A stretch of 64,000 nucleotides of DNA from Archangium sp. (GCA_047600485.1 JASGKS010000001.1:6848259-6912258), one strand, 5' to 3'; shown: positions 10,093 to 44,571, counted from the stretch's first letter. Notes: generated by a model from the letters alone, not told the origin. Program-made: numbers and translations.

Positions 10093-10536
10093 ATGCCGAG
10101 AGCGCAAGAAGGCACATTGATGTCACCGGGTCTGAAGAAGGTGGCGGTTCCAGTTCGCGCGGTCGACCCGGCGTGCATGGCGGTGCGCGACGTGCTCTCG
10201 CTGGTCGGCGACAAGTGGAGCGTGCTGGTGGTCGGCATTCTCGGCAACGGCACGCAGCGGTTCAGCGAGTTGAAGCGCTCCATCGAGGGCATCTCGCAGC
10301 GCATGCTGACGCTCACGCTGCGCGGGCTCGAGCGCGATGGCTTGGTGAAGCGCACGGTGTTTCCGACCGTGCCTCCGCGGGTGGAATACGAGCTGACGAA
10401 GCTCGGCCGCACGTTGCTCGGGCCGGTGAGCGCGCTCGCGAGCTGGGCGAACGAGAATCACGAAGAGCTCACGGCGGCGCGGAAGAAATACGAGCTCAAG
10501 AATCCCCCTCTCCCGCGAGGGAGAGGGTTGGGGTGA
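10093..10536 (+). CDS. HxlR-family (MarR-like winged-helix) transcriptional regulator; C-terminus extended by the dispersed repeat
   Basis: The core [75 protein letters not shown] is canonical HxlR. The likely start is MSPGLKK (about 10120). The last 10 aa ([10 protein letters not shown]) are encoded by repeat copy 2. Confidence 0.8.
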
Positions 10537-10539
10537 GGG
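10503..10539 (+). repeat. Dispersed palindromic repeat, copy 2 (GCGA-loop subtype), forming the 3' end of the HxlR ORF and lying between convergent genes
   Basis: CCCCCTCTCCCGCGAGGGAGAGGGTTGGGGTGAGGGT. Coordinates are corrected by -1 for the label drift in this zone. Confidence 0.7.
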
Positions 10540-10547
10540 TCGAAGAC

Positions 10548-11447
10548 TCAGCGAAGTCTGGCTTGCGTCTGCACGTCAGCGAACTCAGCAACCGCTGAGA
10601 GCACCGCCTTCAGCACCGGGCTCGCGCGTCGCTCCGGCAGATAGAGCACGAAGATGTCGATGCTCTGCCCCACGTGCGTCGGCAGCACGCGCACCAATCG
10701 CTCGTCGGCGACTTCCGAGAACACGACGTGAAAGGGCAGCAGCGCAATGCCCACGCCCGCGACCGCGGCCTCACGCAGCGCCGAGAGATCATTCGTCACC
10801 AACCGCGTCGCCACCGGAAACGAACCGCCCTTCAGCCTCGGCCACGCGGGCGCGCTGCCTGGCGTCGCCATCGTCAGCAGCGCATGGCCCTGCAGCTCAT
10901 CGATGTTCTGCGGCGTGCCGTGCGCCTTCAGATAGTCGGGTGACGCCACGGCGATGAGCTCGGCTTCCGCGAGGCGCCGCCGCAACCAGCCGCTCGGCTC
11001 CGGAGTACCCATCACCAACACCGCGTCGAACCCGTCTTCCAGCCGCAGCGACTGCCGGTCGGTCACGGTGAGCTCGAGGTCGATGAGCGGGTGACGCGAG
11101 TGCAGGAACGCGAAGAACCAACCGATGAACGCGCCGCTCACGCCGGCCGGCATCGCGAGGCGAAGTACCCCTCGTACTTCGTTGCCGGTGGCGAGCACTT
11201 CTTCCCGCACCGTTTCCAACTGTGCCAACGACGCAACGGCGCCCTCGACCAGCCGACGCCCGGCGGTGGTGAGCACGAAGCGATGCGTGGTGCGCTCGGC
11301 AATCTTCAACCCGAGAATTTCTTCCACGCGCGCGAGGCGACGACTCACGGTACTGCGCGGAACTCCGAGCTCGCGGGCGCTCTGACTCACCGAGCCGGTG
11401 CGGGCGAGATTCACCACCGTTGGAAGCAGCGGGAGGAGTTCTTCCAT
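10548..11447 (-). CDS. LysR-family transcriptional regulator
   Basis: 299 aa. The HTH is MEELLPLLPTVVNLARTGSVSQSARELGVPRSTVSRRLARVEEILGLKIAERTTHRFVLTTAGRRL, followed by a LysR substrate-binding domain. The track ORF 10548..12194 fuses it to a wrong-frame N-terminal extension that is antisense to the divergent + gene. Confidence 0.85.
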   Translation of the reverse strand: MEELLPLLPTVVNLARTGSVSQSARELGVPRSTVSRRLARVEEILGLKIAERTTHRFVLTTAGRRLVEGAVASLAQLETVREEVLATGNEVRGVLRLAMPAGVSGAFIGWFFAFLHSRHPLIDLELTVTDRQSLRLEDGFDAVLVMGTPEPSGWLRRRLAEAELIAVASPDYLKAHGTPQNIDELQGHALLTMATPGSAPAWPRLKGGSFPVATRLVTNDLSALREAAVAGVGIALLPFHVVFSEVADERLVRVLPTHVGQSIDIFVLYLPERRASPVLKAVLSAVAEFADVQTQARLR

Positions 11448-11525
11448 GCCCCGGGCCCTGTAGCACCAACGCACCACCAGATGGCATGCATGAGGCATCG
11501 ACGAGACACCCCTTTCCGGTGCCTC

Positions 11526-12395: not shown

Positions 12396-12413
12396 CGGTC
12401 TGGGGGTGGAGTC

Positions 12414-12998: not shown

Positions 12999-13086
12999 GT
13001 CTCCTCTGGAGAGGCGGCCATGAGTTGGGCGGCGCCCAAACGAACTCACGCTGCCTCACCTGCGTGCACGCTCGCGGCGTGGCACG

Positions 13087-15090
13087 GTGGCACGCATGCG
13101 TTGGTCGCTCCTCTGTTTCACGCTCGTAGCGTGCGCCCCACCCGACCCTGACTCGGCTCGCATCTACGCCTTCGAAGAAGACCGCGAATCGGTTCGCTCC
13201 GCGCTGCATGGCCTGAGCACCGCCGCACGCTTCACGCAGGACACCGACCTCGAGCGCGCTGCCGCCGAGCTCGGGCTGGGGCTCGTCCTCATCCGCGATG
13301 GGCAGACGTGCCCCGGGTGTTACGAGCTGATTCCCCGCAACGAGCGTGTCGTCGAGCTGCATGCGTCGACCGAGCTGGGCGTGCAGTACGGCCTCGCGCA
13401 CTGGCTCGAGTCACTCGGTTACGGCTTCTTTCACCCGAACCACACGCGCGAGCCCGAGCACTTCCCGAAGAAGCTCTCGCTCACGGCGGCGAAGTACGTG
13501 CCCGAGATTCCGCGGCGAGGACTGCACCTGCACACGCTCCACCCCATCGAGCCGATGTTCGATTTCTGGGTGCCGTCGGACGAACACTTCGAAGGCGCGA
13601 AGGCGACCATCGACTGGCTGATTCGCAATCGCGGCAACTACATCCAATGGGCGGCGCTCGACGACATTCGCAAGGACCCGGCGAAGGCCGCGCAGTGGCG
13701 CGTGCACACCAACCGCATTCTCTCCTACGCGAGCGAGCGCGGCGTTGAGACCGGGCTCACCGTGCAGCTCTTCGACAACGCGTCGCTGCAGCAGTCGTAC
13801 ACGCTCATCGATTCGGCGCGCCCTGATGACGAGGCGGCGTTGACCGAGCGGCTGCGCACCGTGGTCGACGGCGTTCCGTTCGGAAATCTCAACGTGTCGT
13901 TCGGCGAGTTCTTCGGCGCCGACCCGCAGGCCTTCATCGACAAGGTCGACACCACCGAGCGATTGCTGAGCGCCATTCGTCCTGACGCGTCGATGTCGGC
14001 GGTGGTGCACGTTGGCGACACGCCAGAGCTGCGCGTCACGTACCAGGGCCGCGAGCAGCTCTATTACTTCCTCGTGCGGTACGTGAACCCGCGCATCATC
14101 CCGCGCGTGCACACGGTGATGTTCTACAACTTGTTCGATTCCGCGGGCGGCGCGTACCAGCACCGTGACTTCTCGGAGCACCGCGAGTTCCTGCGCGAGC
14201 GCATCGAGCGCGGAGTTCCCGCGAGCTACTACCCGGAGTCGGCGTATTGGGTCGCGTTCGACAACTCGGTGCCGACGTATTTGCCGGTGTACCTGCGCTC
14301 GCGCTTCACCGACCTCGCGGGCATTCGCGCGCTGGCAGACACCGGCTTCGCCAACCTCGATGAGCACCTGGTGTTCAGCAGCGGTTGGGAATGGGGCTAC
14401 TGGCAGAACGACGCGATGACGCTGCGCATGTCGTACGCGCTGCCGTCGAAGTGGAGTGACGGGCTCGACGCTGCGCTCGGCCCGACGGCGGGCGACATCG
14501 CGCGACGGCTCGGTGAGGTGCAGCACCGCGCGCTCATCGTCGAAGAGCTCGCTCCGTGGTTGGCGGGGAGAGATCAGGTCATCGACGCTGCGGCCACGCT
14601 CGGCCACATCGCCGCGCCGGATCGCCTGGCGTTCTCCGCGTTGGGTGCGGACTTCGGCGCGACGCTGCAGAAGCTCGAGACGCACGCGCTCGAGGTCGAA
14701 GCGCTCGCGAGCGAGGCGTCGCCGCTGCGAGGTGACGATGCGTTCTTGAACGAGTTCGTCGACGGCGTGGAAATCACCGCGGCGCGCACGCGCTTCATCT
14801 GGGCAGTGGCTTCCGCGGCGCGCGCCTTCAATCTGGGTCAGCCGCACGACGCGTTCCTGCAGCAAGCGCAGGATGCCTTCGCGCGCGGCACGCGACTCGC
14901 CGGACAGCGGCGCGTTGGGTTTCACCACCCGAACCCGTCACTGCTCGTCTCCGACGGGAGCAACCCGACGTTCTACGACTACGGCTATCTGCGCGACGCG
15001 AACACGCTGTGCTTCTGGAAACGCGAGCTCGCGCAGGTTCGCAACCTCGTCGAGAACGCCGGGCTCACGGTGCCCGGCTGCGTCCTCTGA
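13087..15090 (+). CDS. Large hypothetical lipoprotein (667 aa); a TIM-barrel glycosidase-like fold is possible but unproven
   Basis: Lipobox LVACAPP. There is no clear catalytic motif. The stop is followed 3 nt later by repeat copy 3. Confidence 0.5.
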   Translation: MARMRWSLLCFTLVACAPPDPDSARIYAFEEDRESVRSALHGLSTAARFTQDTDLERAAAELGLGLVLIRDGQTCPGCYELIPRNERVVELHASTELGVQYGLAHWLESLGYGFFHPNHTREPEHFPKKLSLTAAKYVPEIPRRGLHLHTLHPIEPMFDFWVPSDEHFEGAKATIDWLIRNRGNYIQWAALDDIRKDPAKAAQWRVHTNRILSYASERGVETGLTVQLFDNASLQQSYTLIDSARPDDEAALTERLRTVVDGVPFGNLNVSFGEFFGADPQAFIDKVDTTERLLSAIRPDASMSAVVHVGDTPELRVTYQGREQLYYFLVRYVNPRIIPRVHTVMFYNLFDSAGGAYQHRDFSEHREFLRERIERGVPASYYPESAYWVAFDNSVPTYLPVYLRSRFTDLAGIRALADTGFANLDEHLVFSSGWEWGYWQNDAMTLRMSYALPSKWSDGLDAALGPTAGDIARRLGEVQHRALIVEELAPWLAGRDQVIDAAATLGHIAAPDRLAFSALGADFGATLQKLETHALEVEALASEASPLRGDDAFLNEFVDGVEITAARTRFIWAVASAARAFNLGQPHDAFLQQAQDAFARGTRLAGQRRVGFHHPNPSLLVSDGSNPTFYDYGYLRDANTLCFWKRELAQVRNLVENAGLTVPGCVL

Positions 15091-15093
15091 ACT

Positions 15094-15132
15094 CCCCCTC
15101 TCCCGCGAGGGAGAGGGTCGGGGTGAGGGTGG
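15094..15132 (+). repeat. Dispersed palindromic repeat, copy 3, between convergent genes
   Basis: CCCCCTCTCCCGCGAGGGAGAGGGTCGGGGTGAGGGTGG, starting 4 nt after the TGA at 15088-15090. Confidence 0.75.
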
Positions 15133-15144
15133 ACCGAAAGAAGT

Positions 15145-21663: not shown

Positions 21664-21730
21664 CGAAGGTTCCAACGAAAACGCACGTGTTCTTGTGACA
21701 GCCCAGCGGCCCACCAGCTCGGGGAGGCCC

Positions 21731-21763: not shown

Positions 21764-21765
21764 GC

Positions 21766-25351: not shown

Positions 25352-25451
25352 GTGGCGAAGCTGATCAGAGGCCCGCCAGCGCGCGCCAGTAATATGGAGT
25401 GCAGCGGATTGCGGTCCGCCCGCGAACGACCGGGTAATATGGTGTGCCGCC

Positions 25452-29986: not shown

Positions 29987-29989
29987 CTC

Positions 29990-31177
29990 TTACGGACTCA
30001 GCGCGGGCAGCAGCTCGAAGCCGACGCGGCGGTTCTGCTCGAGGCACGCCGCGTCCTTGCCGTCCTTGCAGAGCGGCTTGCTGTCGCCCCACGACGCGCT
30101 CTCGATTCGCTCGGGGTCCATGCCGCACTTCACGAGCTGCGCGCTGACACTGCCCGCGCGCGTCGCCGAGAGTCGTGCGTTGCCCGCGCGCGTGCCTTTC
30201 TCGTCGGCGTGACCGATGACCTTCACGCGAATGTCGGAGCGCTCCGCAGCGAGCTTGCACACCTCGGCGATGGTCGCCAGGAAGCGCGACTGAATCACGT
30301 CGGAGCCCATCGCGAAGTACACCGTCTGCGGCAGCATCTCGCCGTGCCCGCGGGCGACGACGACCTTCTCCACCACTTTCTCCTTCGCAGGCTCGACGTC
30401 AGCGCAGCCGTCGTCGTCTTCGAAGCCGTTGCGCACTTCGGCGATGAGCGGGCACTTGTCGCTCGCGTCGGCCACTCCGTCACCGTCGTGGTCGTCTTCG
30501 GGGCAGCCGTCGCCGTCACCGATTCCGTCTTTGTCTTCCGCCTGCGTGACGCACTTGTCGACGTCGTCTTTGAGACCGTCGTTGTCGGTGTCGGCCACCA
30601 CCACGGGAGCGACCTCGACGGGCCGCGCCGCCGGCTTCTCGCTCGCGAAACCCTCGAGCGGCACCACGACGTTTCCGCCGAAGGTGAGCAGATGCCCGTC
30701 GTCGTTGGGCCGCAACTCGTCGGGCTGCACGATGTGCTGGTAGCGCGCCATCAAGCCGAGCCCGAGCCACTTCGCCGGGTAGAAGGTCCACCCTGCGCCC
30801 GCATCGAAGGTGAAGCGGAGGAACGGGCCGGTGAAGCCCGGGCCCACGTTGAAGTCGACGAACGGCCCGCCCGCGGTGGGATGAAATTTGAACGACGCAC
30901 GCAGGCCCACGGTCGCCGTCGCGAGATTGCCCGGCGCCTGATTCGCGACCGGGTACCACGCAGAACCGATGCCGAGCTGCGCGAACAAGGGGCCGATGAG
31001 CCGCACGCCCGCGCGCACGTTGCCGCCGCCGCCCCACGTGAAGCGATCTCGATACGTCGGCGTGAGCATCATCTGGCTCGTGCCCTCGAGACCGAACGTC
31101 AACGCACCTGGAGAACCCTGCTGCTGCGCGAACGACACGGCGCTCGACAACGCGACCACCAGAGCGAGCGCTCTCAT
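29990..31177 (-). CDS. OmpA-family outer-membrane protein with thrombospondin type 3 (TSP3) Ca-binding repeats
   Basis: The start MRALALVVALSSAVSFAQQ overlaps the upstream gene's stop as ATGA. It has an N-terminal beta-barrel, TSP3 repeats DTDNDGLKDDVDKC and DKDGIGDGDGCPEDDHDGDGVADASDKCP, and a C-terminal OmpA domain (..VIGHADEKGTRAGNARLSATRAGSV..). The first ~365 codons of track ORF 29990..32272 are wrong-frame antisense to the Cys-repeat array and are rejected. Confidence 0.8.
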   Translation of the reverse strand: MRALALVVALSSAVSFAQQQGSPGALTFGLEGTSQMMLTPTYRDRFTWGGGGNVRAGVRLIGPLFAQLGIGSAWYPVANQAPGNLATATVGLRASFKFHPTAGGPFVDFNVGPGFTGPFLRFTFDAGAGWTFYPAKWLGLGLMARYQHIVQPDELRPNDDGHLLTFGGNVVVPLEGFASEKPAARPVEVAPVVVADTDNDGLKDDVDKCVTQAEDKDGIGDGDGCPEDDHDGDGVADASDKCPLIAEVRNGFEDDDGCADVEPAKEKVVEKVVVARGHGEMLPQTVYFAMGSDVIQSRFLATIAEVCKLAAERSDIRVKVIGHADEKGTRAGNARLSATRAGSVSAQLVKCGMDPERIESASWGDSKPLCKDGKDAACLEQNRRVGFELLPALSP

Positions 31178-34100: not shown

Positions 34101-36153
34101 CGGCCGCGCACATCGTTCCGCACGCGCCGCAGTTGGTGCGGTCGGTGCCCAGGTCGCGACACGAGCCCATGCAGTCGGTGAGTCCCGCGCCGCACGTCGT
34201 GGTGCACGCGCTGCTGCTGCAGACCTGGCCGTTGCCGCACGGAGCACCGCACGCACCGCAGTTCGAGAAATCGGTGGCGAGGTCGCGACAGGTGCCGGAG
34301 CAATTGGTGAGCCCGGTGGTGCAGCTCACCTGGCACATGCCGGCGCTGCAGATGCTGCCCGACGCGCAGGTGATGCCGCAGCCGCCGCAGTTCAGTCGGT
34401 CGGTCGCCGTGTCACGGCACGAGCCCGAGCAGTTGGTGAGCCCCGAGCCGCAGCTCGTCGCGCACGTTCCACCGACGCACTGCGTGCCGGCGACGCACAC
34501 TGTTCCGCACGCGCCACATGCAAGTGGGTCGGTGGTGGTGTCGCGACAGATGCCGCCGCAGTCGGTGAGTCCGCTCGCGCAGGTGGTGCCGCACGTTCCG
34601 CTCGAGCACACCTGGCCCGACGCGCACGCGGTGGTGCAGTTGCCGCAGTGCAAGCGGTCGGTCGCGGTGTCTCGACACACGCCGCTGCAGTCGGTGAGCC
34701 CGGAGCCGCAGCTGACCTGACACGTTCCGCTCGAGCACACTTCGCCCGCCGCGCACGCCACGCCGCAGCCGCCGCAGTTCAAGCGGTCGGTGCCGAGGTC
34801 GCGACACACGCCGCCGCAATTGGTCGAGCCCGCTCCACAGGTCACGGTGCACGCGCCGCTGCTGCACACCTGGCCCGCGCTGCACGCGTTGCCGCACGCG
34901 TTGCAGTTCAAGCGGTCGTTCGACAGGTCGCGACACACGCCGTTGCAGTCCGACATGCCGGAGCCACAGCTCACCTGACACACGCCGTTGCTGCACACCT
35001 CTCCGGCGCCGCAGGTCGTCGCGCACGCGCCGCAGTGCAATCGGTCGGCGGACAAGTCGCGGCACACGCCGGAACATTCGGTGAGCCCCGCGCCGCAGCT
35101 CACCTCACACGCGCCCACGGTGCAGACGAGACCACTCATGCAGCTCGTGCCGCAGGTTCCACAGTTCGCGCGGTCCGTGGAGAGGTCGCGGCAGGTGCCG
35201 TTGCAGTTGGCGAGGCCGCTCGCGCAGCTGAGCTGACAGGTTCCGTTGCTGCACACCTCGCCCGCGCCGCAGGCCGTTCCGCACGCTCCGCAATTCAACC
35301 GATCAGTTGAATAATCGCGGCAGGTGCCAGCACACAGCGAGAGGCCCGCACCGCAGCTGACCTGACACGTGCCGTTGCTGCACACCTGGCCGGCGCCGCA
35401 CGACGTTCCGCACGCGCCGCAGTTGGCGAGGTCGGTCGAGGTGTCGCGGCAGGTGCCGTTGCAGTTGGTGAGGCTGCCGCCGCAGGTGACGGCGCACGTC
35501 GAGTTGCTGCACACCGTTCCCGACGGGCAGGCGTTGCCGCACGCGCCGCAGTGCAGCCGGCTCGCGGTGAGGTCGAAGCACTGACCGTTGCACTGAGTCT
35601 GGCCGCTCGGACATGCGACCTGACAGAGGCCCGCCTGACACGCTTCTCCGACGGCGCACGCGTTGCCGCACGAGCCACAGTCATCGGGGTCTCGCGTGAG
35701 GTCGGCACAGTGCGTGACGCCGCCCGAGGTGCAGGTGGCGAGCATCGCGCTGCAGGTGAGCTGGCAGGTGCCCTGGTCGCAGACGAGGCCGGGGTCGCAC
35801 GCAGTGCCGCACGCGCCGCAGTGACGCAGGTCGGTGTTGGGGTCGACGCACCGGCCTTCACACTGCAGCTGGCCCGAGGGGCACGTGAGCGAACAGCTGC
35901 CATTCACACACACTTCGCCGCTCGCGCAGGCGGTGCCGCACGCTCCGCAGTTGCGCGCGTCGACGGTCGCGTCGACACATTGATCAGTGCACCACAGCTG
36001 CGTCGCGGGACAGGACGCGAGCGGGTCGATGCCTGCGTCTTCGATGAAGCCGCCCACCAGAGGCTGGCAGACGCAACCGCTCAACGAAGACCACACGAGC
36101 ACGACGGTGAAGCGGGCGAAGCGAGTCACGGGCGCTCCAACGAGAACGTTCAC
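31174..36153 (-). CDS. Giant secreted protein or lipoprotein (1659 aa) built from ~33 tandem 43-aa, 8-Cys repeats (Myxococcus cysteine-rich repeat type) plus a ~150-aa C-terminal beta-rich domain
   Basis: Start MNVLVGAPVTRFARFTVVLVWSSLSGC. The unit is C.(A/S)GLT(N/D)C.G.CRDL.TDR.NCG.CG..C..G.VCS.G.C.VS, repeated with exact 43-aa periodicity. It resembles the TIGR02232-type Myxococcus cysteine-rich repeat. The C-terminus ends ..WQTRNVTWPATIFIRVLRPAGGVNCASYQIQVTR. Confidence 0.8.
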   Translation of the reverse strand: MNVLVGAPVTRFARFTVVLVWSSLSGCVCQPLVGGFIEDAGIDPLASCPATQLWCTDQCVDATVDARNCGACGTACASGEVCVNGSCSLTCPSGQLQCEGRCVDPNTDLRHCGACGTACDPGLVCDQGTCQLTCSAMLATCTSGGVTHCADLTRDPDDCGSCGNACAVGEACQAGLCQVACPSGQTQCNGQCFDLTASRLHCGACGNACPSGTVCSNSTCAVTCGGSLTNCNGTCRDTSTDLANCGACGTSCGAGQVCSNGTCQVSCGAGLSLCAGTCRDYSTDRLNCGACGTACGAGEVCSNGTCQLSCASGLANCNGTCRDLSTDRANCGTCGTSCMSGLVCTVGACEVSCGAGLTECSGVCRDLSADRLHCGACATTCGAGEVCSNGVCQVSCGSGMSDCNGVCRDLSNDRLNCNACGNACSAGQVCSSGACTVTCGAGSTNCGGVCRDLGTDRLNCGGCGVACAAGEVCSSGTCQVSCGSGLTDCSGVCRDTATDRLHCGNCTTACASGQVCSSGTCGTTCASGLTDCGGICRDTTTDPLACGACGTVCVAGTQCVGGTCATSCGSGLTNCSGSCRDTATDRLNCGGCGITCASGSICSAGMCQVSCTTGLTNCSGTCRDLATDFSNCGACGAPCGNGQVCSSSACTTTCGAGLTDCMGSCRDLGTDRTNCGACGTMCAAGQVCSNGACQVSCGAGFTNCGGTCRDLATDRAHCGACGVTCGAGEVCSSGTCQVSCSSGLTDCGGVCRDVASDRANCGMCGNACAAGQVCSGGVCTTSCGASLTDCGGVCRDLVTDRSNCGTCGNACTSGQLCSASSCTVNCGVGLTNCSGVCRDLSNDRLNCNACGASCPAGQVCTGGACTVSCGSGLTNCGGVCRDLGSDRLHCGACGAPCGAGEVCSGGVCTVSCGAGLTECTGVCRDLSTDRANCGGCGVGCGAGEVCSSAACTVSCGAGLTNCSGTCRDLTTDRLHCGTCTTNCGAGEVCSSSACTLSCGGGLTNCTGVCRDVASDRANCGACGNVCGAGQVCSGGVCTVSCGTGLTNCSGTCRDLTTDRLNCGACNGACAAGQVCSGSACTTSCGSGLTDCSGSCRDLTTDRLNCGACGTSCPAGQVCAGSTCTVSCGGGQTNCGGVCRDVSSDNANCGGCGVACTAGQVCSSGSCAVSCGAGLSNCSGTCRDLTTDRANCGACGTSCPAGQVCSGGSCQVSCGTGLTNCSGTCRDLTTDRLNCNACGSACAAGQVCQSSACTVSCGGGQTNCGGVCRDTATDRLNCGACGNACPAGSICSGSACQVSCGTGLSNCGGTCRDLQNDRLNCGGCNVMCSAGQVCVGASCTVSCGAGQTNCSGSCRDTQTDRNNCGGCGVTCAAGQVCSSGTCQVSCASGQLLCGGTCRDPQTDRNNCGGCGVVCAAGQVCSSGTCQVSCAAGQQNCSGTCRDTTTDRNNCGGCGVVCAAGRVCSASSCQVSCTAGTQNCSGTCRDTTTDRNNCGGCGITCASGQICLGSACTFSCPSGQTVCGSSCVNAVSETCGAAMSLGSLPVGAVVLTPVSSIPANGQEDWYSVQFPFNPDTGLHGTGTPTVAFASNPGNAFAMQVWTTCSSGAMCGINVTNWAFTDNVAGSFWQTRNVTWPATIFIRVLRPAGGVNCASYQIQVTR
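31656..35976 (-). repeat. Tandem DNA repeat array, 129-bp unit x ~33, encoding the Cys-rich repeats
   Basis: The 43-codon periodicity of the protein implies a 129-bp unit. Long spurious ORFs on the antisense strand (e.g. 31192..35310, 1372 aa) are a by-product. Confidence 0.65.
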
Positions 36154-36215
36154 AGCAGCTCACCGACGCCGACGCGGGCGCATCAGACCATGGCGGCCCG
36201 AGCGCAGCTACACGC

Positions 36216-38054
36216 TCACTCTTCTTCTTCGAGGAGATTGACGCTCAGCGTCTTCGACTCGCCGCCGACGATCTTCACCGTGCGCTTGCGAGTCTCATTC
36301 AGCCCCACGTTGTTCAGCTCGACGAAGTGTGGGCCTTCGAAGAGCCCCTTCACCGTCACCGGCGTCTGTCCGTACGTCTTGCCGTCGACCTTCACGTAGG
36401 CCCACGGGTCGGCCTTCACGACCAGCGTGCCGCGGCTCAAGGTGTTGATGGTGGTGGTCGCGCCGGCTTCGAGGTTGAGCTTCACGGTCTGCTCGAGACC
36501 CGCGGCCTTGTTGATCAACCGCAGCGTCAACGCACCCGCCGGTCGCTTGAGGGTGAGCGGCGTCGCGCCGAGGTCGTCTTTTCCTTCGAACACGTGCGCG
36601 ACGATGGGCAGGCCTTCGAACACGATGGTCGCTTCACCCGCCGCCGCCTTGCCCGGACCGTCGGAGTTGGTGGTGTTGGTCGGCAGCACGATGACCGGCT
36701 GCTGCGAGAGCTTCCACACCTGGTAGCCGACGCCGCCACCGACACCGATGACGAGCATGCCGACGATGACGAGCCACAGGCCCGGGCCCCGCTTGGCGCC
36801 CGCGGGCTTCGGCTGCGGCGGCGGAGAATCGAAGCTCAGGTTCGGAGCAATCGCCGCGGAAGGAAGCGGTGCGGGCTGCTGGAGCAACGGCGGCTCACTC
36901 ACCTGCACCACCGGCAACGCATCGCGGCTGCGGCGCGCGGTCGGTTGCAACAACGCGCGCGTCTGCTCTTCGACCGTGGGAGGCGTCGAGTGCACCACCA
37001 CGCCTCCGCCCGTCGCGCTCACGCTCTGACCAGCCCATGTACCGCTCACCACCGAGCGCAACGCGGGGCCGGAGCGCTCTTCACTCGCTCCACTCGCCAG
37101 CTCGCTCAACGCGGTGCGCTCGGGGTCACCGGGCGGCCACAGCTTCTGCATGTAGTCGCCGACTTCTTCCGGGTCCGCCGCGCGACCGACTGCTGCCTCG
37201 ACAGCCTGCCGCAAGGCGCGCGCCGATTCGAAGCGCGTGTCGGGGTTCTTCTCGAGCGCCATCATCACCACGTTCGAGAGCGCGACTGAGACCTCGTTGG
37301 TGACTTCGTGCGGAGGCACGGGCCGCTCTTGAATCACCGCGAGCGAAACCGCCGCTTCGTTCGGCCCGGAGAAGGGACGCTTGCGGGTGAGCGCGCGGTA
37401 CATCACCACGCCGAGCGCGAAGAGGTCTGCGCGCCCGTCGATGGGATTGCCGAGCAGATACTCGGGGGCGATGAAGCCGTGCTTGCCCTTCACTGTGCCG
37501 GCCGTGGTGGCGCTCGCGAGCAACGCCGGAGTGGCCGCCTTCGCGATGCCGAAGTCGACGAGCCGCGTCTGACCACTCAGGCTGACGAGCAGGTTGTCGG
37601 GCGAGACGTCGCGGTGCACGAGCCCCAGGTGCGTGCCGTCGCGGTCGCAGAGCCGGTGCGCGTAGTCGAGGCCGCTCGCCGCATCCATCGCGATGCGGGC
37701 GATGATTTTTTCTCCGGGCGGGAGGTTCTTCTCTTTCGCGCGCTTCAGCATGCGCGAGAGCGAGAAGCCCTCGATGTATTCCATCGCCAGGTAGAGGACG
37801 CCGTTCTCGTGCCCGAGGTCGAAAATCTGAACGCAGTTGGGGTGGTTGAGCCGCGCCGCGAGTCGGCCTTCGTTGACGAACATGGTCACGAACGAAGGGT
37901 CGTTCGCGAGGTTGGGAAGAATGGTCTTCACGACCACCAGTTTTTCGAAACCGGCGATGCCGAGCGCGCGCGCGAGCCACACCTCGGCCATGCCGCCCGT
38001 GGCGAGGCGACCCAGCACCTCGTAACGCGTGAGCCGAGGCAGAGGAGTGGACAC
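36216..38054 (-). CDS. Ser/Thr protein kinase with a TM segment and a C-terminal PEGA domain
   Basis: Hanks motifs are present: LGRLATGGMAEVWLA, VKTI, HRDVSPDNLLV, DFGIAK, APE. The TM segment is LWLVIVGMLVIGVGGGV. The C-terminal PEGA is ..GTLVVKADPWAYVKVDGKTYGQTPV.. Confidence 0.85.
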   Translation of the reverse strand: MSTPLPRLTRYEVLGRLATGGMAEVWLARALGIAGFEKLVVVKTILPNLANDPSFVTMFVNEGRLAARLNHPNCVQIFDLGHENGVLYLAMEYIEGFSLSRMLKRAKEKNLPPGEKIIARIAMDAASGLDYAHRLCDRDGTHLGLVHRDVSPDNLLVSLSGQTRLVDFGIAKAATPALLASATTAGTVKGKHGFIAPEYLLGNPIDGRADLFALGVVMYRALTRKRPFSGPNEAAVSLAVIQERPVPPHEVTNEVSVALSNVVMMALEKNPDTRFESARALRQAVEAAVGRAADPEEVGDYMQKLWPPGDPERTALSELASGASEERSGPALRSVVSGTWAGQSVSATGGGVVVHSTPPTVEEQTRALLQPTARRSRDALPVVQVSEPPLLQQPAPLPSAAIAPNLSFDSPPPQPKPAGAKRGPGLWLVIVGMLVIGVGGGVGYQVWKLSQQPVIVLPTNTTNSDGPGKAAAGEATIVFEGLPIVAHVFEGKDDLGATPLTLKRPAGALTLRLINKAAGLEQTVKLNLEAGATTTINTLSRGTLVVKADPWAYVKVDGKTYGQTPVTVKGLFEGPHFVELNNVGLNETRKRTVKIVGGESKTLSVNLLEEEE

Positions 38055-38895
38055 GCGCTGCAGACTCTACTCAGAGTGCCCGCGCGTGCCCCGCCCGAAG
38101 AAACCACCGCGTTGGTTGGAGGCCGCGAGGCTGCGCAACGACGGAACGCCGGCCGATTGGCTCTCCCGGGCGCTGGCGCGCTCGGGCGTGATGCCCCTCA
38201 AGGAAGCCGAAGAGGCGATTCGGGCCGGTCGCGTGGTGGTCGATTCGCGCGTCGCCACCGAGCCGCTGATGCCGGTGACGGTGGGCAAGAGCGTGGTGAA
38301 GGTCGACGACGCGAAGGTGTCGCTCGACTGGAAGACGCGCGTGCTGATGCTGCACAAGCCGGCCGGAGTGGTGACGCACGGCTCTGACCCGCAGGGAATC
38401 GGCACGGTGTTCGAGGTGCTGCTGTCGGCACTGCCCGCGGAGCTGTTGCGCTTCGGGTGGCACGCCGTGGGCCGGCTGGATCGCGACACGACGGGACTGC
38501 TGCTGTTCACCAACGACGAGAAGTTCGTCGCGCATGCGACGGCGCCGGAGACGCATCTGCCCAAGCGTTACGTCGCGCGCGTGAGCGGTGAAGTGACGGA
38601 CGAGAAGCTGCAGACGCTGCGGCGCGGCGTACAGCTCGAGGACTTCATGACGCGGCCGGCGAAGGCGACGCGGCGAGAGGCCGATGTCGTCGAGTTGGTG
38701 CTCACCGAGGGCAAGTTCCACCAGGTGAAGCGGATGCTGGGTGAGGTCGGGCTGCCGACGCTCACGCTTCATCGCGAGGCGGTGGGCACGCTGGAGCTCG
38801 ACGTGCCGGAGCGTGCACTGCGCGAGTTGAGCGACGACGAGGTCCGCGACAACCTCAGCTATCCCCCTCTCCCGCGAGGGAGAGGGTCGGGGTGA
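38029..38895 (+). CDS. RsuA/RluB-type pseudouridine synthase (S4 domain + catalytic domain); the start is uncertain and the C-terminus is extended by the dispersed repeat
   Basis: The sequence ..HAVGRLDRDTTGLLLFTNDEKFVAH..KRYVARVSG...GKFHQVKRMLGEVG..L.HREAVG is collinear with E. coli RsuA, including the catalytic Asp in RLDRDTTG. The annotated start overlaps the divergent kinase by 26 nt, and a GTG near 38086 is an alternative. The last 10 aa, [10 protein letters not shown], come from repeat copy 4. Confidence 0.75.
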   Translation: MSRGRGVDTRCRLYSECPRVPRPKKPPRWLEAARLRNDGTPADWLSRALARSGVMPLKEAEEAIRAGRVVVDSRVATEPLMPVTVGKSVVKVDDAKVSLDWKTRVLMLHKPAGVVTHGSDPQGIGTVFEVLLSALPAELLRFGWHAVGRLDRDTTGLLLFTNDEKFVAHATAPETHLPKRYVARVSGEVTDEKLQTLRRGVQLEDFMTRPAKATRREADVVELVLTEGKFHQVKRMLGEVGLPTLTLHREAVGTLELDVPERALRELSDDEVRDNLSYPPLPRGRGSG

Positions 38896-38901
38896 GGGTG
38901 G
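38863..38901 (+). repeat. Dispersed palindromic repeat, copy 4, forming the 3' end of the RsuA-like ORF
   Basis: CCCCCTCTCCCGCGAGGGAGAGGGTCGGGGTGAGGGTGG, identical to copy 3. Confidence 0.75.
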
Positions 38902-38905
38902 ACCT

Positions 38906-40015
38906 CTATTTCGCCGTCGTGGGCGGAGGCGGGTTGAGCGCCGCGGAAATCACCCGCGCCGCGCTCGGAGCCGCGAGCGTGCCGCCGCTGTAGCCAGTCG
39001 AAGTGGTCTCGATGCCCACGTAGACGACGAACGGAACGCGGTCCTGGGTGGCAGCTTCAGCGAGCGGAAACCCGGCGAAGTTCGCCCAATTCACGCCGTC
39101 TTCGATTTGCCACGTGCCGGTCTTCCCCGCGACGGCATGCAACGGCAGCCGCGCGGGTGCGCCCGTGCCGTCGTCGCGCGCCACGGTCTGCGCGAGCAAC
39201 AGCTGCATGCGCGTCGCCGTCTTCGCGGTGAACGCCTGCCGCGCCGTCTTCTCTCCCGCGCGCGTCACGGCCACCGGGTGGTACCGCCCCTCGTCGGCGA
39301 ACGCGCCGTACGCCGCCGCAATCTGCAGCGGAGAAATCTCGACGTCCGCGCCGAACGCCACGCGGTACCGCGCAGGAGGCTCGAGCGTGCGCACATTCGG
39401 CACGTGGCCCTTGCGCATCTTCGGCAGCATCGTCTGGTCGAGCTGCAGCGACTCGTACAGCGCGGCGAGCGGCTCGGCGCCCAGCTGCTCGGCGACCTTC
39501 GCGGTGCCGATGTTCGACGAGAAGACGAGCACGTCTTCCACGCTCATCTCTCCGCGCGGCACGCGGTCGTTGATGATCTCCTTCTCGCCGAGCCGCCACT
39601 TGCCGCCCTCGCCCATCACCGTGGTCGTCTCCTCGACCACGCCTTGATCGAGCGCCGCGGCGATGGTGAACGACTTCATGACCGAGCCCGGGTCGACGGC
39701 GCGCGTCGCGGCGAGCCACGGCTCGTTGACCGTGCCTTCACGCCCGCCCATCGCGAGGAGTGCTCCGGTGGACGGGTCGAGCATCACGATGACCGCCCGC
39801 TTGTTGGCCGGCTCGGCGCTGAGGCGATCGAGCTCGGCTTCGACCACGCGCTGCAACGAGAGGTCGATGGTGCAGTCCTTCGCGCCATCGCAGAGCGCAT
39901 CGCGCGCTCCTTCGGGTCCGACGACCCGCGCCTGCGAGGCACAGGCGACACACGTGGCCAGCAACACTGCGGTCGAGAACACACGAAGAGTGGGCATGTG
40001 CCCGGCGTGGAGCAA
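38906..40015 (-). CDS. Penicillin-binding-protein transpeptidase-domain lipoprotein (TP domain only)
   Basis: Lipobox LLATCVACAS. The SxxK motif is SVMK, the SxN motif is FSSNIG and the KTG motif is AGKTGT. At 369 aa it has no dimerisation or glycosyltransferase domain. Confidence 0.65.
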   Translation of the reverse strand: MLHAGHMPTLRVFSTAVLLATCVACASQARVVGPEGARDALCDGAKDCTIDLSLQRVVEAELDRLSAEPANKRAVIVMLDPSTGALLAMGGREGTVNEPWLAATRAVDPGSVMKSFTIAAALDQGVVEETTTVMGEGGKWRLGEKEIINDRVPRGEMSVEDVLVFSSNIGTAKVAEQLGAEPLAALYESLQLDQTMLPKMRKGHVPNVRTLEPPARYRVAFGADVEISPLQIAAAYGAFADEGRYHPVAVTRAGEKTARQAFTAKTATRMQLLLAQTVARDDGTGAPARLPLHAVAGKTGTWQIEDGVNWANFAGFPLAEAATQDRVPFVVYVGIETTSTGYSGGTLAAPSAARVISAALNPPPPTTAK

Positions 40016-40040
40016 CGCGAGTGCCAGCGCATGACTCAGA

Positions 40041-41201
40041 TCAGTTGCTGGGAATCACCGCGGTGTTCCCGCACTTCCCGGGCTCGCGAATCGGCGGTCT
40101 CGGCACCACGCGCGCGCTCCACACCGTGCCGGGGTCGACGAACATCGAATTCACCGCGTCGACCTCTTCCTTCTCCCACGTCACCGGCCCTTCGCAGTTC
40201 GGCGCCGAGAAGAACCACACCTTCGCCGCGGGAAATGACACGGGAATTCGCGACTCGAGCAACACGCCGTTGGCGCGCAACTCCGGAGTGGAAGGCGGCA
40301 ACGACTCGTCGACCACCAGCGTCTCCTCGCCTTCGACGCAGCGCCAGTTGCCGAGCCAGTCGTACGCGCGAATGCTCCACTGCGTCTCCGGCTCGAACAA
40401 CCGCACGACGAAGTGACACGAGCCATTCCCGAAATCACAGCCGTAGAACCCGCTGCCGAGACAGTGCGGGTGCTCGTAGAACCGCACCGTCTGCATGTCG
40501 AAGTCGCCGGTGACGTGAAGCCGCGCGGAGTTCGACGACGCGGGGTTCGGGCTCGTCACCTCGGCGCGAAAGACTCTCGGCGGGACGGTGTCGGTGAGCA
40601 ACGAAATCGTCGCGCACTGCGAGTGTTGACCCGTCACGTCGGTGCTCTGCACGGCGAAGCTGCGCGTGGTGTTTTCGGGCAGCACCACCAGCACGCCGTC
40701 TGATTCGAAGCGCTCCTTCGAGAGCACGTGCAGCACCGCTCCGCCGCAGGTGTCTTGAAACAGCGTGACGAACGCCGCGTCGGGCGCCGTGCCGCTGAGC
40801 GAGAAGCGCGGCTGCAACGAAGGGCTGGGAGGTGTCGACTTCAGCGTCGGTCTCGGCGGAGCAGTCTTCGGCTCGAAGCGCACGCGCAGCGGTGTCGAGC
40901 ATTCCGAGCGCTCACCCTTCGCGGTCACCGCGCGCGCGGAGAACACGTTGTCGAAGAGCGGCACCAGCGCCACCTCGACGCCTTCGGCCAGGGCCTCGCT
41001 CGACACTTCTTTCAAGACCGGGCCTGCGCACGCTTCGTCGACGAACAGCCGCACTCGCGCGTCCGGCGGAGCGGTGGCCTTCAACTTCACGTTCGCGAAG
41101 GGCGTTGGTGATTCCATCGATTCGAAGAGGGGCGCTTCGGGAATGCCGGGAGTCGGTGGTGGTGGTTCGCAGGCGATGAGCAGTGACGCGAACAGGAGCA
41201 T
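40041..41201 (-). CDS. Hypothetical lipoprotein with beta-sandwich (Ig-like) repeats
   Basis: The start MLLFASLLIACEPP is preferred. The upstream 18 codons of the track ORF are encoded by repeat copy 5 (..HAKRGEGRGEGLA). There are two similar ~120-aa Cys-containing modules. Confidence 0.5.
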   Translation of the reverse strand: MLLFASLLIACEPPPPTPGIPEAPLFESMESPTPFANVKLKATAPPDARVRLFVDEACAGPVLKEVSSEALAEGVEVALVPLFDNVFSARAVTAKGERSECSTPLRVRFEPKTAPPRPTLKSTPPSPSLQPRFSLSGTAPDAAFVTLFQDTCGGAVLHVLSKERFESDGVLVVLPENTTRSFAVQSTDVTGQHSQCATISLLTDTVPPRVFRAEVTSPNPASSNSARLHVTGDFDMQTVRFYEHPHCLGSGFYGCDFGNGSCHFVVRLFEPETQWSIRAYDWLGNWRCVEGEETLVVDESLPPSTPELRANGVLLESRIPVSFPAAKVWFFSAPNCEGPVTWEKEEVDAVNSMFVDPGTVWSARVVPRPPIREPGKCGNTAVIPSN

Positions 41202-41206
41202 GGCCA

Positions 41207-41252
41207 GCCCCTCTCCCCGGCCCTCTCCCCGCTTCGCATGGAGAGGGAGATT
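41207..41252 (-). repeat. Dispersed palindromic repeat, copy 5 (minus orientation), directly after the stop of the gene at 41252..42244
   Basis: The plus-strand sequence is CCCCTCTCCCCGGCCCTCTCCCCGCTTCGCATGGAGAGGGAGAT. Its reverse complement matches the TTGCGAAGC-loop subtype with a loop variant ATGCGAAGC. Confidence 0.7.
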
Positions 41253-42244
41253 CATCGCGCGGAGATCTCCGACAGCGCGGTGATGGGCACCAGCGCGCCC
41301 GCTTCGTCGACGAACGACACGCGCAACGTGAGCGCGCGCAGGTTCGGAGACTGCGAGATGAACGCGCCCGGCTCGTCACAGAACTCGCTCTCGCGGTCGA
41401 GCTTCACCGCGTCGAGCCGCGCCGTCCCACCGGGATTCCACTGGTCGTAATCAACCACGAAGTTGAATTCGTACTTCACGTTCACCGCGGCGCGCTCGAG
41501 CACCAGCCCGTGGAACAACATGGTGTGGAGGATGAAGTCCTCGCCGAAGTTGAAGACCAGCGTGCGCGTGCCGGGCGCGAACGTGTACGGGAGGAACCGC
41601 CCGTCGGTGAGCGGGCACGGCTTCACGTCGATGAACGGGCACTCACCACCACGTGAAGCGGGAGCGTCGCGCACCGTGACCTGCACCGGAGTCCAGTCGG
41701 TCTCCCGCCGCGTCTCGACCGGCACGTAGTCGACGCGACCGAGCGAATCGATGGGCACTTCCTTCCACTCGAAGGCGTGCGTGATGTTGCGGCGCCGGTA
41801 GTCGCGATTGAGCGCGTAGTCGACGTTGCTGAACTGCGGGCCACGCCACGCGATGGCTCCGTCGACCTCGAGTTCGTCGAACGATTCGTCGTTCGAGCCA
41901 CGCCACGGGCCGAGCTCCAAATCGGCGTCGGGAAACCAGAAGCGCCGCACGAGGTGGTACGACGGGTTCGGCGCGTCGGACTCGATCGAGAAGAAGCGAC
42001 GGTCGTTTTCTCCGCCCGTGATTTCCTGCCGCAGCACCGAGAACGAGAAGCGACCGTCCGCGTCGGCGGTGGTGACGTCGAGCGGCTCCAACGCCGAGCA
42101 GCGCGACTTCGAGGCGACCTTGTTGCGCAACAGCCGCACCTCGACGTTCGGCTCCGCGGTGCCTGAGACGAGGAACGTGTCTTCCGGCAGTGGGCACGCG
42201 CTCCACCCCAACCACAGACCGAGCCACGCGAGCCGTCGCAACAC
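41252..42244 (-). CDS. Hypothetical lipoprotein
   Basis: 330 aa, start MLRRLAWLGLWLGWSACP. No recognised domain. It is 1 nt downstream of the TonB-dependent receptor stop. Confidence 0.5.
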   Translation of the reverse strand: MLRRLAWLGLWLGWSACPLPEDTFLVSGTAEPNVEVRLLRNKVASKSRCSALEPLDVTTADADGRFSFSVLRQEITGGENDRRFFSIESDAPNPSYHLVRRFWFPDADLELGPWRGSNDESFDELEVDGAIAWRGPQFSNVDYALNRDYRRRNITHAFEWKEVPIDSLGRVDYVPVETRRETDWTPVQVTVRDAPASRGGECPFIDVKPCPLTDGRFLPYTFAPGTRTLVFNFGEDFILHTMLFHGLVLERAAVNVKYEFNFVVDYDQWNPGGTARLDAVKLDRESEFCDEPGAFISQSPNLRALTLRVSFVDEAGALVPITALSEISAR

Positions 42245-44571
42245 TCAGTACCTCGCCTTCGCCCCGAGGAAGGGCAGCACGGCGGGAATGGTGAACGGCG
42301 TCTTCTTCAGCACGCGCGTGTCTCCGGAAGGAAGGACCTCGTAGGTGTAGCCCAGCACTTCGCGCGTGACGCTGGCGTTGAAGACGTCGAGGAACAGCTC
42401 GAAGGTGAAGGCGCTGAAGGTCCACGTACGCGAGATGCGAGCGTCGACGCGCGCGAACGCCGGGAGCCGTGGCTCACTCGTCAAACTCTGCGGAACCCAC
42501 GTCGGCTGCAGCGTGCCCGGGTCGAGCCCTTCGGTCATCGCGCGGCTGCTGATGATGCCGCTCTCGGGCCGACCGGTGTTCACGTGCAGACCGAGGCTGA
42601 CGTGAATCGCGAACGGCAACACCACGCCGCCGGTGAGATGCAGCACGTGCGCTTGATCGAACTCGAACGGCACCCAGCGCTGCTCGGAATCGGTGACGCG
42701 CCCGCTGCCGTCGAAGTCGAAGACCGTGCGCAACCGCTCGCTGCGTTGAAACGTGTACGAGAGCCAGCCGAACCAGCGGCCCTCGGGTCGCTTGCGAATC
42801 ATCAGCTCGAGGCCCCACGCGCGGCCCTGCGTCGACGACGCTCCTCCCATGCGCGCGCGGTTCTGCAGCAGGTCTTCGAGCGAGTACTCGATGGGTCGGG
42901 TGATTTGATTCCAATACAGCGAGCCGGTGGCCTCGAAGCCGAACGGGAGCAACGCGTCCGCACCGACTTCGGTCTTCACCGCTTGCTGCAGACCATCACG
43001 CAAACCGGCGAGGTCGGTGACGGGGAGATTGAGCAACACCGTCGGCGCTTGATGCGCGAGTGACGCAGCGGCGCGGAAGCCGAGCTCGTTGCTGAACGCG
43101 TAGCGAACCAACAACCGCGGCTCCGGAGCGAACCGCATCACGTCAGGCGCGTCGACGAAGTAGCCGTCGAGTCGCAGACCGAGCTGCGTGGTGAAGTGGC
43201 CGGCCTTCCACTGCAGCTCAGCAAAGCCGCCGACGAGCGCTCCGGCGGTGGCGGGCTCGCGGAAGCTCGCTGCGGGTCCACTCATCGCCGACGGGTCACG
43301 GTCGATGTCGAACTTGGTGCTCTGCCGTTCGACGTCGAAGCCCAGACTCAGCTCGAGCGCGTCGCTGAGCGCGCCGTCCCACCGCATGCGGCCGCCGATG
43401 GATTTTCGCGCCATCAAGAATTGCCCGAAGCGCACGTCGTCGCGTTCGCCGAGGAGCCCGAGCTCTTCGATGCCCGCGGTGAGGCCGAGCTCGAGCTGAC
43501 CTCCGAGCGCGGGGCGGCGGTATGAGAGGTCGGCGCGGTGGAACTTGCTGGTGAGCAGCGCGGTGAACGTCCCGGGGCCGTTCGCTTTCACGCCCGCTTC
43601 GTCGATGACGCCGAGCACCAGCGCGCGCACTTTGCCGTCGCCCACGTTCCAGACCACGCGGCCCTGGTAGTCGCCGAAGCTCACCACCGGTGTCGGCAGC
43701 GGAGGCGTCGGTGGAAACACCGCCTTCGCAATCGCCGCGGCGAGTGGACCCGCGTAGCTCACGCGGCCCGCGACGGTGACGTGGAGATTCAATGGCTCGA
43801 TGGGCACCGCGACGAACGCGCCCGCGTTGAGCAAGTCGACGCTCGCGGTGACCTGCAGCTTCGATGATGGTTTTGCGAGGCGGCCGTCGATGGCTCCACC
43901 GAGGAGCCGGCCGAGTCGCGCGGGCAACACGCCGGGGAAGAAATCGACCTTCTCGATGAAGTCGGGGTGCACCACGCCGGGCCCGCGAGCAGGTGGTACA
44001 GCTGGGGAACCTTCACGCCGTCGACGAAGAAGCCGGTGGCCGCTGGCTGCGCGCCTCGCACCACGGGGTACGAGAGGCCCGAGGCGATGCTCGACACGCC
44101 CGGCAACAACATCGCCACGCGGAACGGATCGCCCATGGTGCCGGCGATTTCCTGCAGCTCGACGCGCGAGAGTTCGATGCGTGAAGGGCCTTCGTCGCGA
44201 CGCGCGCGCACGACGGTTTCCCAACCTTCGACTGCTCGTTCGAGGCGGTAGCGAACCTCGACGCGTTGGCGCGGAGCGAGCGTCTCGGTGACCTCGAGCG
44301 GGCGAAAGCCGGACGCGCGCACGAGCAGTTCGAGCGTGAGGCCACCGTCGGCGTTGCTCGTCTCGGTGGTGAGCTCGAAGTGGCCCTCGGCGTCGGTCTG
44401 CGCGAGCACCGTGCCTCCGTCGCGCAGCACGAGCTCCGCGAGAGGAATGGGCTCTCGCGTGCCGCGCGCTTCGACTGAGCCGATGAGCGTCGCACCCTCA
44501 CCCCGACCCTCTCCCTCGCGGGAGAGGGGGACAGTTTGTGCGAGGGTCAGGACGACGAGAAGCGCGAGCAC
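42245..44571 (-). pseudogene. TonB-dependent-receptor-like outer-membrane protein (CarboxypepD_reg-like N-domain + plug + barrel) split by a -1 frameshift near 43975; this is either a pseudogene or a sequencing error
   Basis: Track ORFs 43789..44571 (..FFVDGVKVPQLYHLLAGPAW then garbage) and 42245..44224 (garbage then VVHPDFIEKVDFFPGVLPARLGRLLGG..., ending ..LGAKARY) sit in different frames. Restoring one G in the run GGCCCGGCG(G)TGGTGCAC joins them into ..LAGPAVVHPDF... The GTG start gives a signal peptide MLALLVVLTLAQT. Confidence 0.55.
44493..44530 (-). repeat. Dispersed palindromic repeat, copy 6 (minus orientation), 40 nt after the TerB-like gene's stop and translated in-frame inside the TonB-dependent receptor N-terminus
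   Basis: The plus-strand sequence is CACCCTCACCCCGACCCTCTCCCTCGCGGGAGAGGGGG. It encodes [14 protein letters not shown] between the signal peptide and the first domain. Confidence 0.7.

Follow-up and report, generated by a model that had tools for sequence, protein, structure and literature searches.

The window analyzed here is a 64-kb stretch of DNA (67% GC) from a metagenome-assembled genome (MAG) of Archangium sp. that consists of one 9.42-Mb contig. It contains nine copies of a short GC-rich repeat, five on the plus strand and four on the minus strand; the 21-nt core GGGAGAGGGTCGGGGTGAGGG has nine matches at up to three mismatches, compared with 0.01 expected from a shuffle control. By its sequence, this repeat is the BoxC/PIT/TMECO intrastrand triplex motif (hereafter BoxC/TM), formerly named BoxC or PIT elements (Holder et al., 2015; PMC4666352). 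Five of the nine copies begin 0–2 nt past a stop codon (copies 1, 3, 5, 8, and 9), two contain the stop codon of a gene, one is internal to an open reading frame (ORF), and one lies between divergent genes. We propose that copies of the BoxC family persist at tight gene junctions and there become protein tails and linkers.

The repeat unit is approximately 40 nt long and combines a 9-bp hairpin of a C-rich and a G-rich arm with a third, G-rich arm, in the layout CCCTCTCCC-loop-GGGAGAGGG-YCG-GGGTGAGGG. The B-type unit, TCCCCCTCTCCCGCGAGGGAGAGGGTCGGGGTGAGGGTG (39 nt), is represented by copies 2, 3, 4, and 6, and the A-type unit, TCT-CCCTCTCC-TTGCGAAGCG-GGGAGAGGG-YCG-GGGTGAGGG-GC (44 nt), by copies 1, 5, 8, and 9; copy 7 is a variant unit. 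The initial annotation of this DNA was right that the repeat is real, but it did not recognize that the family is already known. The published pattern is CCCTCNCCC N3-6 GGGNGAGGG N3 GGGNGAGGG (PMC4666352), and the four B-type copies fit it exactly, with GCGA as loop 1 and TCG or TTG as loop 2. In a side-by-side reading, loop 1 and the last base are their sole differences from E. coli TMECO no. 20. The A-type copies keep all three arms; their 10-nt loop 1, compared with the published N3-6, lengthens the stem and is a small departure from the pattern. The arm sequences in the window are identical to arms that formed a triplex in vitro (PMC4666352). A search of the whole window against Rfam at gathering thresholds gave no matches, and no Rfam family fits the repeat. 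The GTAG/CGTC terminal tag, named as a mark of repetitive extragenic palindromic (REP) sequences and REPINs in PMC3733652, was not seen at either end of the units.

Read directly, the B-type consensus has no stop codon in five of the six frames and one TGA in the sixth. The repeat length, 39 nt for the B-type and 44 nt for the A-type, is not inherently a multiple of three and does not always preserve the frame.

Copies 1 (A-type; 5614-5657, plus strand) and 3 (B-type; 15093-15131, plus strand) are intergenic. The former begins 1 nt past the TAA (5610-5612) of ORF 5151-5612 and the latter 2 nt past the TGA (15088-15090) of ORF 13087-15090, and this stop shares its frame with the TGA of copy 3 itself. 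Copies 8 (A-type; 61192-61235, plus strand) and 9 (A-type; 61276-61319, minus strand) form an inverted pair. They are located directly past the TGA (61189-61191) of ORF 60121-61191 and directly past the TGA (61320-61322) of a sigma-54 activator gene on the minus strand (61320-62837), respectively. The two copies are thus opposed between two convergent genes, 40 nt apart, with a predicted joint hairpin of about 110 nt (61185-61310). Copy 7 (58646-58686, minus strand) is the only one found neither at a gene 3' end nor inside an ORF. It lies in a divergent intergenic region, flanked by a TetR-like gene (minus strand) and a short-chain dehydrogenase gene (plus strand), both assigned by reading of the translations. 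Beside it, at 58690-58725 on the minus strand, the inverted repeat TTCCTC-TAGTTG-GAGGAA between the same two genes may be an operator of the TetR-like regulator.

Copy 2 (B-type; 10503-10541, plus strand) forms the last 10 codons and the stop codon (TGA, 10534-10536) of a gene for an HxlR-family regulator. The ORF at 10093-10536 ends with ..KKYELKN and 10 repeat-coded residues, and its stop is the TGA inside GGGGTGAGGG, in the third arm. NCBI calls the gene at 10120-10536 (P0121, 138 aa), with the repeat-coded C-terminal tail included. The Pfam HxlR domain (residues 37-125 of 147) is located outside the repeat-coded part. On the other side, 7-11 nt past its 3' end, copy 2 is followed by the stop of a convergent minus-strand gene (10548-11447), LysR-like by reading of its helix-turn-helix N-terminus. 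The HxlR homologs (n = 120) are conserved to ..AAR..Y(D/E) and then carry unrelated basic tails of 5-30 aa; the nearest of them, P0122 (88% identity), exceeds the window protein in length. At L368, a syntenic HxlR locus that lacks the repeat, the filled-versus-empty difference is clean and amounts to about 43 nt. The window has the missing block after YE.. and before the convergent gene's stop, and the HxlR ORF of L368 extends 65 nt into the antisense of that gene.

Copy 4 (B-type; 38862-38900, plus strand) has the same position in a gene for an RsuA-like pseudouridine synthase (38086-38895 as called by NCBI; P0001, 269 aa), where it forms the last 10 codons and the stop (38893-38895). The ORF at 38029-38895 ends with ..DNLSY and 10 repeat-coded residues, again at the TGA inside GGGGTGAGGG of the third arm, and the Pfam PseudoU_synth_2 domain (residues 105-237 of 288) is located outside the repeat-coded part. 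A convergent penicillin-binding (transpeptidase) gene (38906-40015, minus strand) has its stop 10 nt from the RsuA stop. The RsuA orthologs (n = 38) are conserved to ..L(N/G/S)(F/Y) and then mostly end in xPR(A/S)G; as an ending ..xPRAG accounts for about 5 residues, the 10 repeat-coded residues of the window amount to a net gain of about 5 aa. The closest syntenic locus, L369, has the gene order of the window (TerB, receptor, 324-aa gene, lipoprotein, and penicillin-binding protein, with RsuA convergent) and is free of the repeat at the three sites that copies 4, 5, and 6 occupy in the window. In L369, the ORFs for the penicillin-binding protein and RsuA share 31 nt at their 3' ends.

The initial annotation had proposed that the repeat supplies C-terminal tails and that it lands at or over stop codons and captures a new stop. 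Both proposals are borne out by the syntenic empty sites and by the HxlR and RsuA-like ORFs, each of which stops at the TGA of the repeat: a copy located near the stop of one gene lies in the last codons of the other and supplies its stop. Orthologs were also expected to end about 10 aa earlier, which is not the case, because the net gain in RsuA is only about 5 aa and the HxlR tails are variable, with the closest one longer. As the convergent genes overlap by 65 and 31 nt in the relatives without the repeat, the repeat replaces a tail and does not simply add 10 residues. From these comparisons, it appears that the repeat substitutes poorly conserved tails at the HxlR and RsuA ends. The close RsuA, HxlR, and receptor orthologs have no repeat-coded segment. 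The tails at copies 2 and 4 are the only possible ends of these ORFs; with no earlier in-frame stop, both copies should be translated.

The 3' end of RsuA genes has been entered by the repeat in other lineages as well. In L364, the repeat matches that of the window in both codon and frame (..HF|PPLPLGRGSG*), and in L366 it begins three codons further on (..GFRGI|PSPSGRGPG*). In L367, it follows ..NYEPRV and is read in a different frame; the third arm there lacks the TGA, so the RsuA ORF continues 15 codons past the V, to the ATGA of the next gene. The RsuA gene of L365 ends without the repeat (..RFEVRAG*). The DNA of L364, L366, and L367, with two frames and three positions, confirms at least three independent insertions at this gene end.

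Copy 5 (A-type; 41207-41250, minus strand) directly follows a stop/start overlap (ATGA) between two tandem genes and shares its frame with the lipoprotein ORF downstream (40041-41255, minus strand), which reads MNLPLHAKRGEGRGEGLA|MLLFASLLIAC. The long form of this ORF starts at 41255 (404 aa) and the short form at 41201 (386 aa). NCBI, through its Prokaryotic Genome Annotation Pipeline (PGAP), calls the short lipoprotein form (P0361), and the 404-aa form is unannotated. In L369 and in L121, a syntenic locus of another Archangium MAG, the lipoprotein start overlaps the upstream stop (GTGA or ATGA) and the N-terminus is basic (MRALL.., MSRRAW..); the short form MLLFASLLIAC has no basic residue. 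The window keeps the overlapping ATG, in frame with the 54-nt block that holds copy 5. The 18-codon N-terminal extension, earlier taken as spurious, is not necessarily so: since the ancestral overlapping start is retained in frame with this block, it may perhaps be genuine. The prediction that automated pipelines mis-call starts and stops at every copy failed at copies 2, 4, and 5, the ones that can be checked, none of which is mis-called.

Copy 6 (B-type; 44493-44531, minus strand) is found within a gene for a TonB-dependent receptor (42245-44571, minus strand), between the signal peptide and the CarboxypepD_reg domain. The ORF at 43789-44571 reads MLALLVVLTLAQT, then 14 repeat-coded residues, then TLIGSVEARGT, and the Pfam CarboxypepD_reg match starts at residue 29-31, past the repeat-coded insert. 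Five receptor orthologs (P0245, P0247, P0251, P0254, and P0258) read MLALLLTLLSGQ|ALTGTVEARGTREP with no linker, and the window receptor has an in-frame insertion of 14-15 codons exactly at this junction. The internal 14-aa insert reported earlier is thus present at copy 6 and absent from the linker-less orthologs and from L369, where no convincing repeat remnant was seen in the receptor linker. In L121, the receptor linker contains a repeat in the opposite orientation and at another position, encoding PHPDPLPASQGEG, and the receptor P0252 has a segment similar to this linker. This second insertion, confirmed in the DNA, is an independent event. The window receptor gene is found in two frames, with a 1-nt shift at a G-run near 43980-43990 on the minus strand (GCGGGCCC versus the ortholog-implied GCGGGGCCC), which could be a homopolymer assembly error or mark a real, recent pseudogene.

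In the genomes analyzed by Holder et al. (PMC4666352), 3610 copies of the motif were found in 262 proteobacterial genomes, with a maximum of 143 per genome and no link to phages; the supplementary table includes one copy in Myxococcus xanthus DK1622. The 23 copies of E. coli K-12 are "always located intergenically," 10-310 nt from ORFs and at no preferred distance. The same study reported that the motif has neither promoter nor terminator activity, that it forms a stable triplex in vitro with none stable seen in vivo, and that it is associated with local genome instability; its function was unknown in 2015. In our scan of one genome per species, the motif was found at no fewer than 120 loci, with conserved arms and different loops and flanks. 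The hosts among the matches listed include Pseudomonas, Enterobacter, Bordetella, Sphingomonas, Verrucomicrobia, Planctomycetes, Chloroflexi, Bifidobacterium, Akkermansia, Geomonas, Archangium, Omnitrophota, and Caldithrix. BoxC/TM copies with identical arms were thus seen far beyond Proteobacteria (genome contigs L001-L120), and also in at least 120 IMG/VR viral contigs (L124-L243). By reading of translations, in-frame copies occur across phyla in long ORFs for a DNA ligase-like (L047), a radical-SAM-like (L071), and a U32 peptidase-like protein (L035).

The placement of the repeat relative to genes was analyzed in 133 non-redundant A-type copies from high-GC metagenome contigs (median GC content 69%). 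The exact B-type pattern had no matches in the metagenome contigs, and the A-type subtype was used instead; the set was chosen by the loop subtype found in the Archangium and Myxococcales genome matches. The coding strand and frame of each flank were called from codon-position GC (the GC3-phase heuristic, after the third codon position). At low-GC loci, this heuristic called a non-coding upstream flank for 110 of 172 cross-phylum and 99 of 163 viral copies; because it failed on most of these, positional statistics are given for the high-GC set only.

A co-directional gene was found upstream of 82 of the 133 copies. The upstream stop is separated from CCCTCTCC by no more than 8 nt in 51 of the 69 copies where this gap could be measured (median 6 nt); to a convergent stop on the opposite side, the median distance is 14.5 nt. 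In 20 of 24 untied convergent pairs, by our own count, the smaller gap is the upstream one. The arrangements are convergent in 34 cases, tandem in 27 + 19, and divergent in 4. Among the 82 upstream ORFs, 11 enter or cross the repeat, in all three frames. Additionally, eight more overlaps were found on the opposite strand, comprising five C-terminal tails and three internal in-frame copies. Overall, about 15% of the metagenome copies overlap an ORF.

A stop-like triplet is found near the 5' end of the repeat in 57 of the 82 copies with a co-directional upstream gene and in 9 of the 33 without one. The possibility that the stop codon is part of the element or of its target was rejected: stops of all three kinds are found, at distances ranging from 0 to about 12 nt, and the triplets are enriched only where a co-directional gene is present. 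Of 62 cases in the contigs L244-L363, 30 have the TGA of the repeat and the abutting upstream stop in a common frame, compared with 21 expected. We do not rely on this weak excess, which could mean that some upstream stops arose in ORFs that once ended at the TGA of the repeat. In the same contigs, an opposite-strand gene beside the C-rich side of the repeat often has its start codon 7-15 nt away. GGGAGAGGG-AGA is then at Shine-Dalgarno distance, and the repeat may supply ribosome-binding sites.

The hairpins predicted for single copies are stable, yet their fold z-scores against shuffles are modest (-1.6 to -2.8, and one positive). For the pair of copies 8 and 9, the predicted fold is -77.5 kcal/mol (z = -6.6). 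Target-site duplications of 5 nt or more were sought as flanking direct repeats and were found at 12 of 127 copies, compared with 10.8 +/- 2.9 under shuffled pairing; duplications of 2-4 nt remain compatible with the flank data of these 127 copies.

The explanation that we favor, with a probability of about 0.8 as a whole, is that BoxC-family copies persist at tight gene junctions and become protein tails and linkers. Copies would spread in Archangium and its relatives and survive nearly exclusively where genes meet, mostly a few bases past a stop. Where a junction is tight or overlapping, a copy would often end up in the first or last few codons of a neighboring ORF. An ORF invaded in this way would either be closed by the TGA of the repeat, as at copies 2 and 4, or be read through, as at copy 6 and possibly copy 5, since five of the six frames have no stop and the sixth has the TGA. 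The product would be a short, low-complexity tail or linker rich in Pro, Leu, Gly, Arg, and Glu. Such additions would survive because the sites are non-conserved termini and inter-domain linkers, which they replace or extend. The identity of the repeat, the structure of the ORFs, the empty sites, the independent recurrences, and the placement statistics are shown directly, whereas in vivo translation of the tails, their neutrality, and the way in which copies move are inferred. The stop-hugging placement itself may result from survivorship, targeted insertion, or a selected RNA function.

Several points weigh against this explanation. Translation of the tails is deduced from ORF logic. Errors in the sequence are also possible, because the source is a MAG in which at least one homopolymer frameshift was seen. 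The receptor that carries the internal insert may be a pseudogene. The metagenome contigs were taken to be myxobacterial on the basis of loop subtype and GC content alone, and the GC3-phase heuristic is no gene finder; it was checked on the nine window copies, where the context was reproduced. Finally, the copies are putatively mobile: no duplication of at least 5 nt was detected, and a transposase gene was not searched for.

The strongest competitor is a possible, if clearly less favored, role of the repeat as a selected RNA element: a post-stop hairpin would shield the 3' end of the mRNA or delay the ribosome at termination, and the coding overlaps would be by-products. The free G-rich arm could further be the ribosome-binding site of the next cistron, which agrees with the several (-,-) cases in which a start codon is located 7-15 nt from the G-rich stem. 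The very short and asymmetric gap to the co-directional stop, the strong bias to gene 3' ends with depletion between divergent genes, the stability of the predicted hairpins, above all in the pair of copies 8 and 9, and the precedent of REP sequences (PMC12306157) are consistent with such a role. However, the motif in E. coli acted neither as a promoter nor as a terminator and kept no consistent distance to ORFs (PMC4666352), the fold z-scores of single copies are modest, and survivorship in a gene-dense genome could look alike. A stricter form, in which Myxococcota BoxC/TM is specifically coupled to stop sites by targeted insertion or by a selected post-stop hairpin, seems to us improbable but consequential. 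The repeat would then be both a regulator of termination or of mRNA 3' ends and a recurrent source of C-terminal and linker peptides, with a first functional handle on an element whose role was unknown in the 2015 study. Its near-identity across phyla and viral contigs would in that case suggest a conserved host machinery that recognizes or makes it.

The persistence of copies as tails and linkers also has to be weighed against readings that concern the proteins themselves. The insert of copy 6 may not be tolerated, the receptor being a decaying pseudogene and only terminal tails being compatible with function. The frameshift at the G-run and the absence of an intact product of the window gene from the protein collection searched speak for this. 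Nevertheless, we consider it rather unlikely: the shift is one G in a G-run, in an assembly inferred to be long-read from its single 9.4-Mb contig; both halves still strongly resemble the orthologs from end to end (78% identity, 100% coverage); two orthologs that are intact, P0242 (804 aa) and P0252 (782 aa), have repeat-coded segments in the same linker; and long ORFs of other phyla also hold in-frame copies. That the tails are annotation or assembly artefacts, with the real proteins ending before the repeat, is very unlikely, even for a MAG with at least one probable indel error. There is no in-frame stop upstream of copies 2 or 4, the coding GC3 signal continues up to the repeat, RsuA ORFs end in or after the repeat in three other assemblies, and NCBI annotates both tails (P0121 and P0001). 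Least credible is the suggestion that the Pro/Gly/Arg segments are conserved functional peptide motifs whose DNA likeness follows from selection on the protein. Similar peptides do recur at the same gene ends in several lineages, but the same DNA is also intergenic, is read in all frames and on both strands, and encodes unrelated peptides such as SLSLRSGERVGVRG; moreover, close orthologs do without the segment.

The window has other features besides the nine copies. The 1659-aa ORF at 31174-36153 (minus strand) contains about 32 tandem units of 129 nt (43 codons) at 31573-35690, which are 60-85% alike; recurring TGC/GCA codons in these units point to a possible Cys-rich repeat domain. At 45413-46020, ORF 44906-46270 holds a set of repeats with abundant GAC and GTC, and the syntenic gene of L121 has a TSP_3 Pfam match. 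A Gly-rich low-complexity coding stretch (GGC/GGT runs) is located at 62843-63055. Paralogous DNA stretches were found at 37386-38027, 48938-49573, and 55792-56412 (families D12, D15, and D16). Ser/Thr kinase (Pkinase) genes are annotated in the syntenic loci L121 and L365, which suggests a cluster of kinase paralogs.

The finding reveals no new kind of system. Its interest lies in the repeat, which is among the most widely distributed short repeats in bacteria and for which no function was known in the 2015 study. In one lineage, this repeat hugs stop codons, has repeatedly entered particular gene ends and linkers, and is read into ORFs. These are testable clues to its biology, and they point either to an RNA hairpin past the stop or to the manner in which copies insert. 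The case is also a clean example of protein termini remodeled by small repeats, and for annotators it accounts for a class of odd tails and linkers rich in Pro, Gly, Arg, and Glu in database proteins.

Like BoxC/PIT/TMECO elsewhere, the window repeat is dispersed, multi-copy, present on both strands, and sometimes arranged in close inverted pairs, as in copies 8 and 9. Unlike in E. coli K-12, where the motif is always intergenic, three of the nine window copies (2, 4, and 6) are found within ORFs and five abut a stop. We nevertheless class the repeat as BoxC/TMECO, because intergenic location is a habit of one species and not a structural criterion. The copy density, nine per 64 kb, compares with the published maximum of 143 per genome. 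The host range also differs: proteobacterial genomes and no phage link in PMC4666352, compared with many other phyla and viral contigs in the present scans. A literature search gave no report of in-frame fusion for BoxC/TM or of stop-codon adjacency in myxobacteria and no papers on the repeat-coded peptides (GEGRGEG, RERVGVR, and others), and a search combining REP, stop codon, and C-terminal extension gave only papers on eukaryotic read-through. To judge from these searches, the reading of BoxC/TM into ORFs and its abutting of stops in myxobacteria appear to be unreported; the repeat family and this kind of event are known.

The positional analog is REP. In E. coli, where a REP sequence lies less than 16 nt past a stop, terminating ribosomes stall and expression falls (Liang, Rudd and Deutscher 2015, as summarized in PMC12306157). 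GC-rich extragenic hairpins of this kind crowd within about 15 nt of the upstream stop (PMC12306157), as the window repeat does. Unlike the window repeat, REP belongs to an unrelated sequence family and is tied to the RAYT/TnpA-REP transposase.

In the manner of the Rickettsia palindromic elements, which are reportedly the subject of the Ogata 2000 work, the window repeat is found in frame inside ORFs, is absent from orthologs, and is confined to non-conserved protein parts. Small repeats fused to ORFs, either internally or as extensions of 3' ends, have been described as a source of new peptide segments (Delihas, 2011; PMC3184786). The cases that this review cites are Ogata 2000, Delihas 2007 (RU-1/2/3; PMC2759123), Croucher 2011, Hot 2011, and Fewer 2011. 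As in these fusions, the window repeat is a short palindrome with open frames, located inside ORFs or at their 3' ends. Tight adjacency to stop codons is not described for these families in the literature examined. The BoxC/TM unit is smaller, about 40 nt compared with 100-170 nt for the enterobacterial RU units (PMC2759123). It also differs from those fusion families in belonging to another repeat family, in having a Myxococcota host, and in carrying one built-in TGA that closes ORFs.

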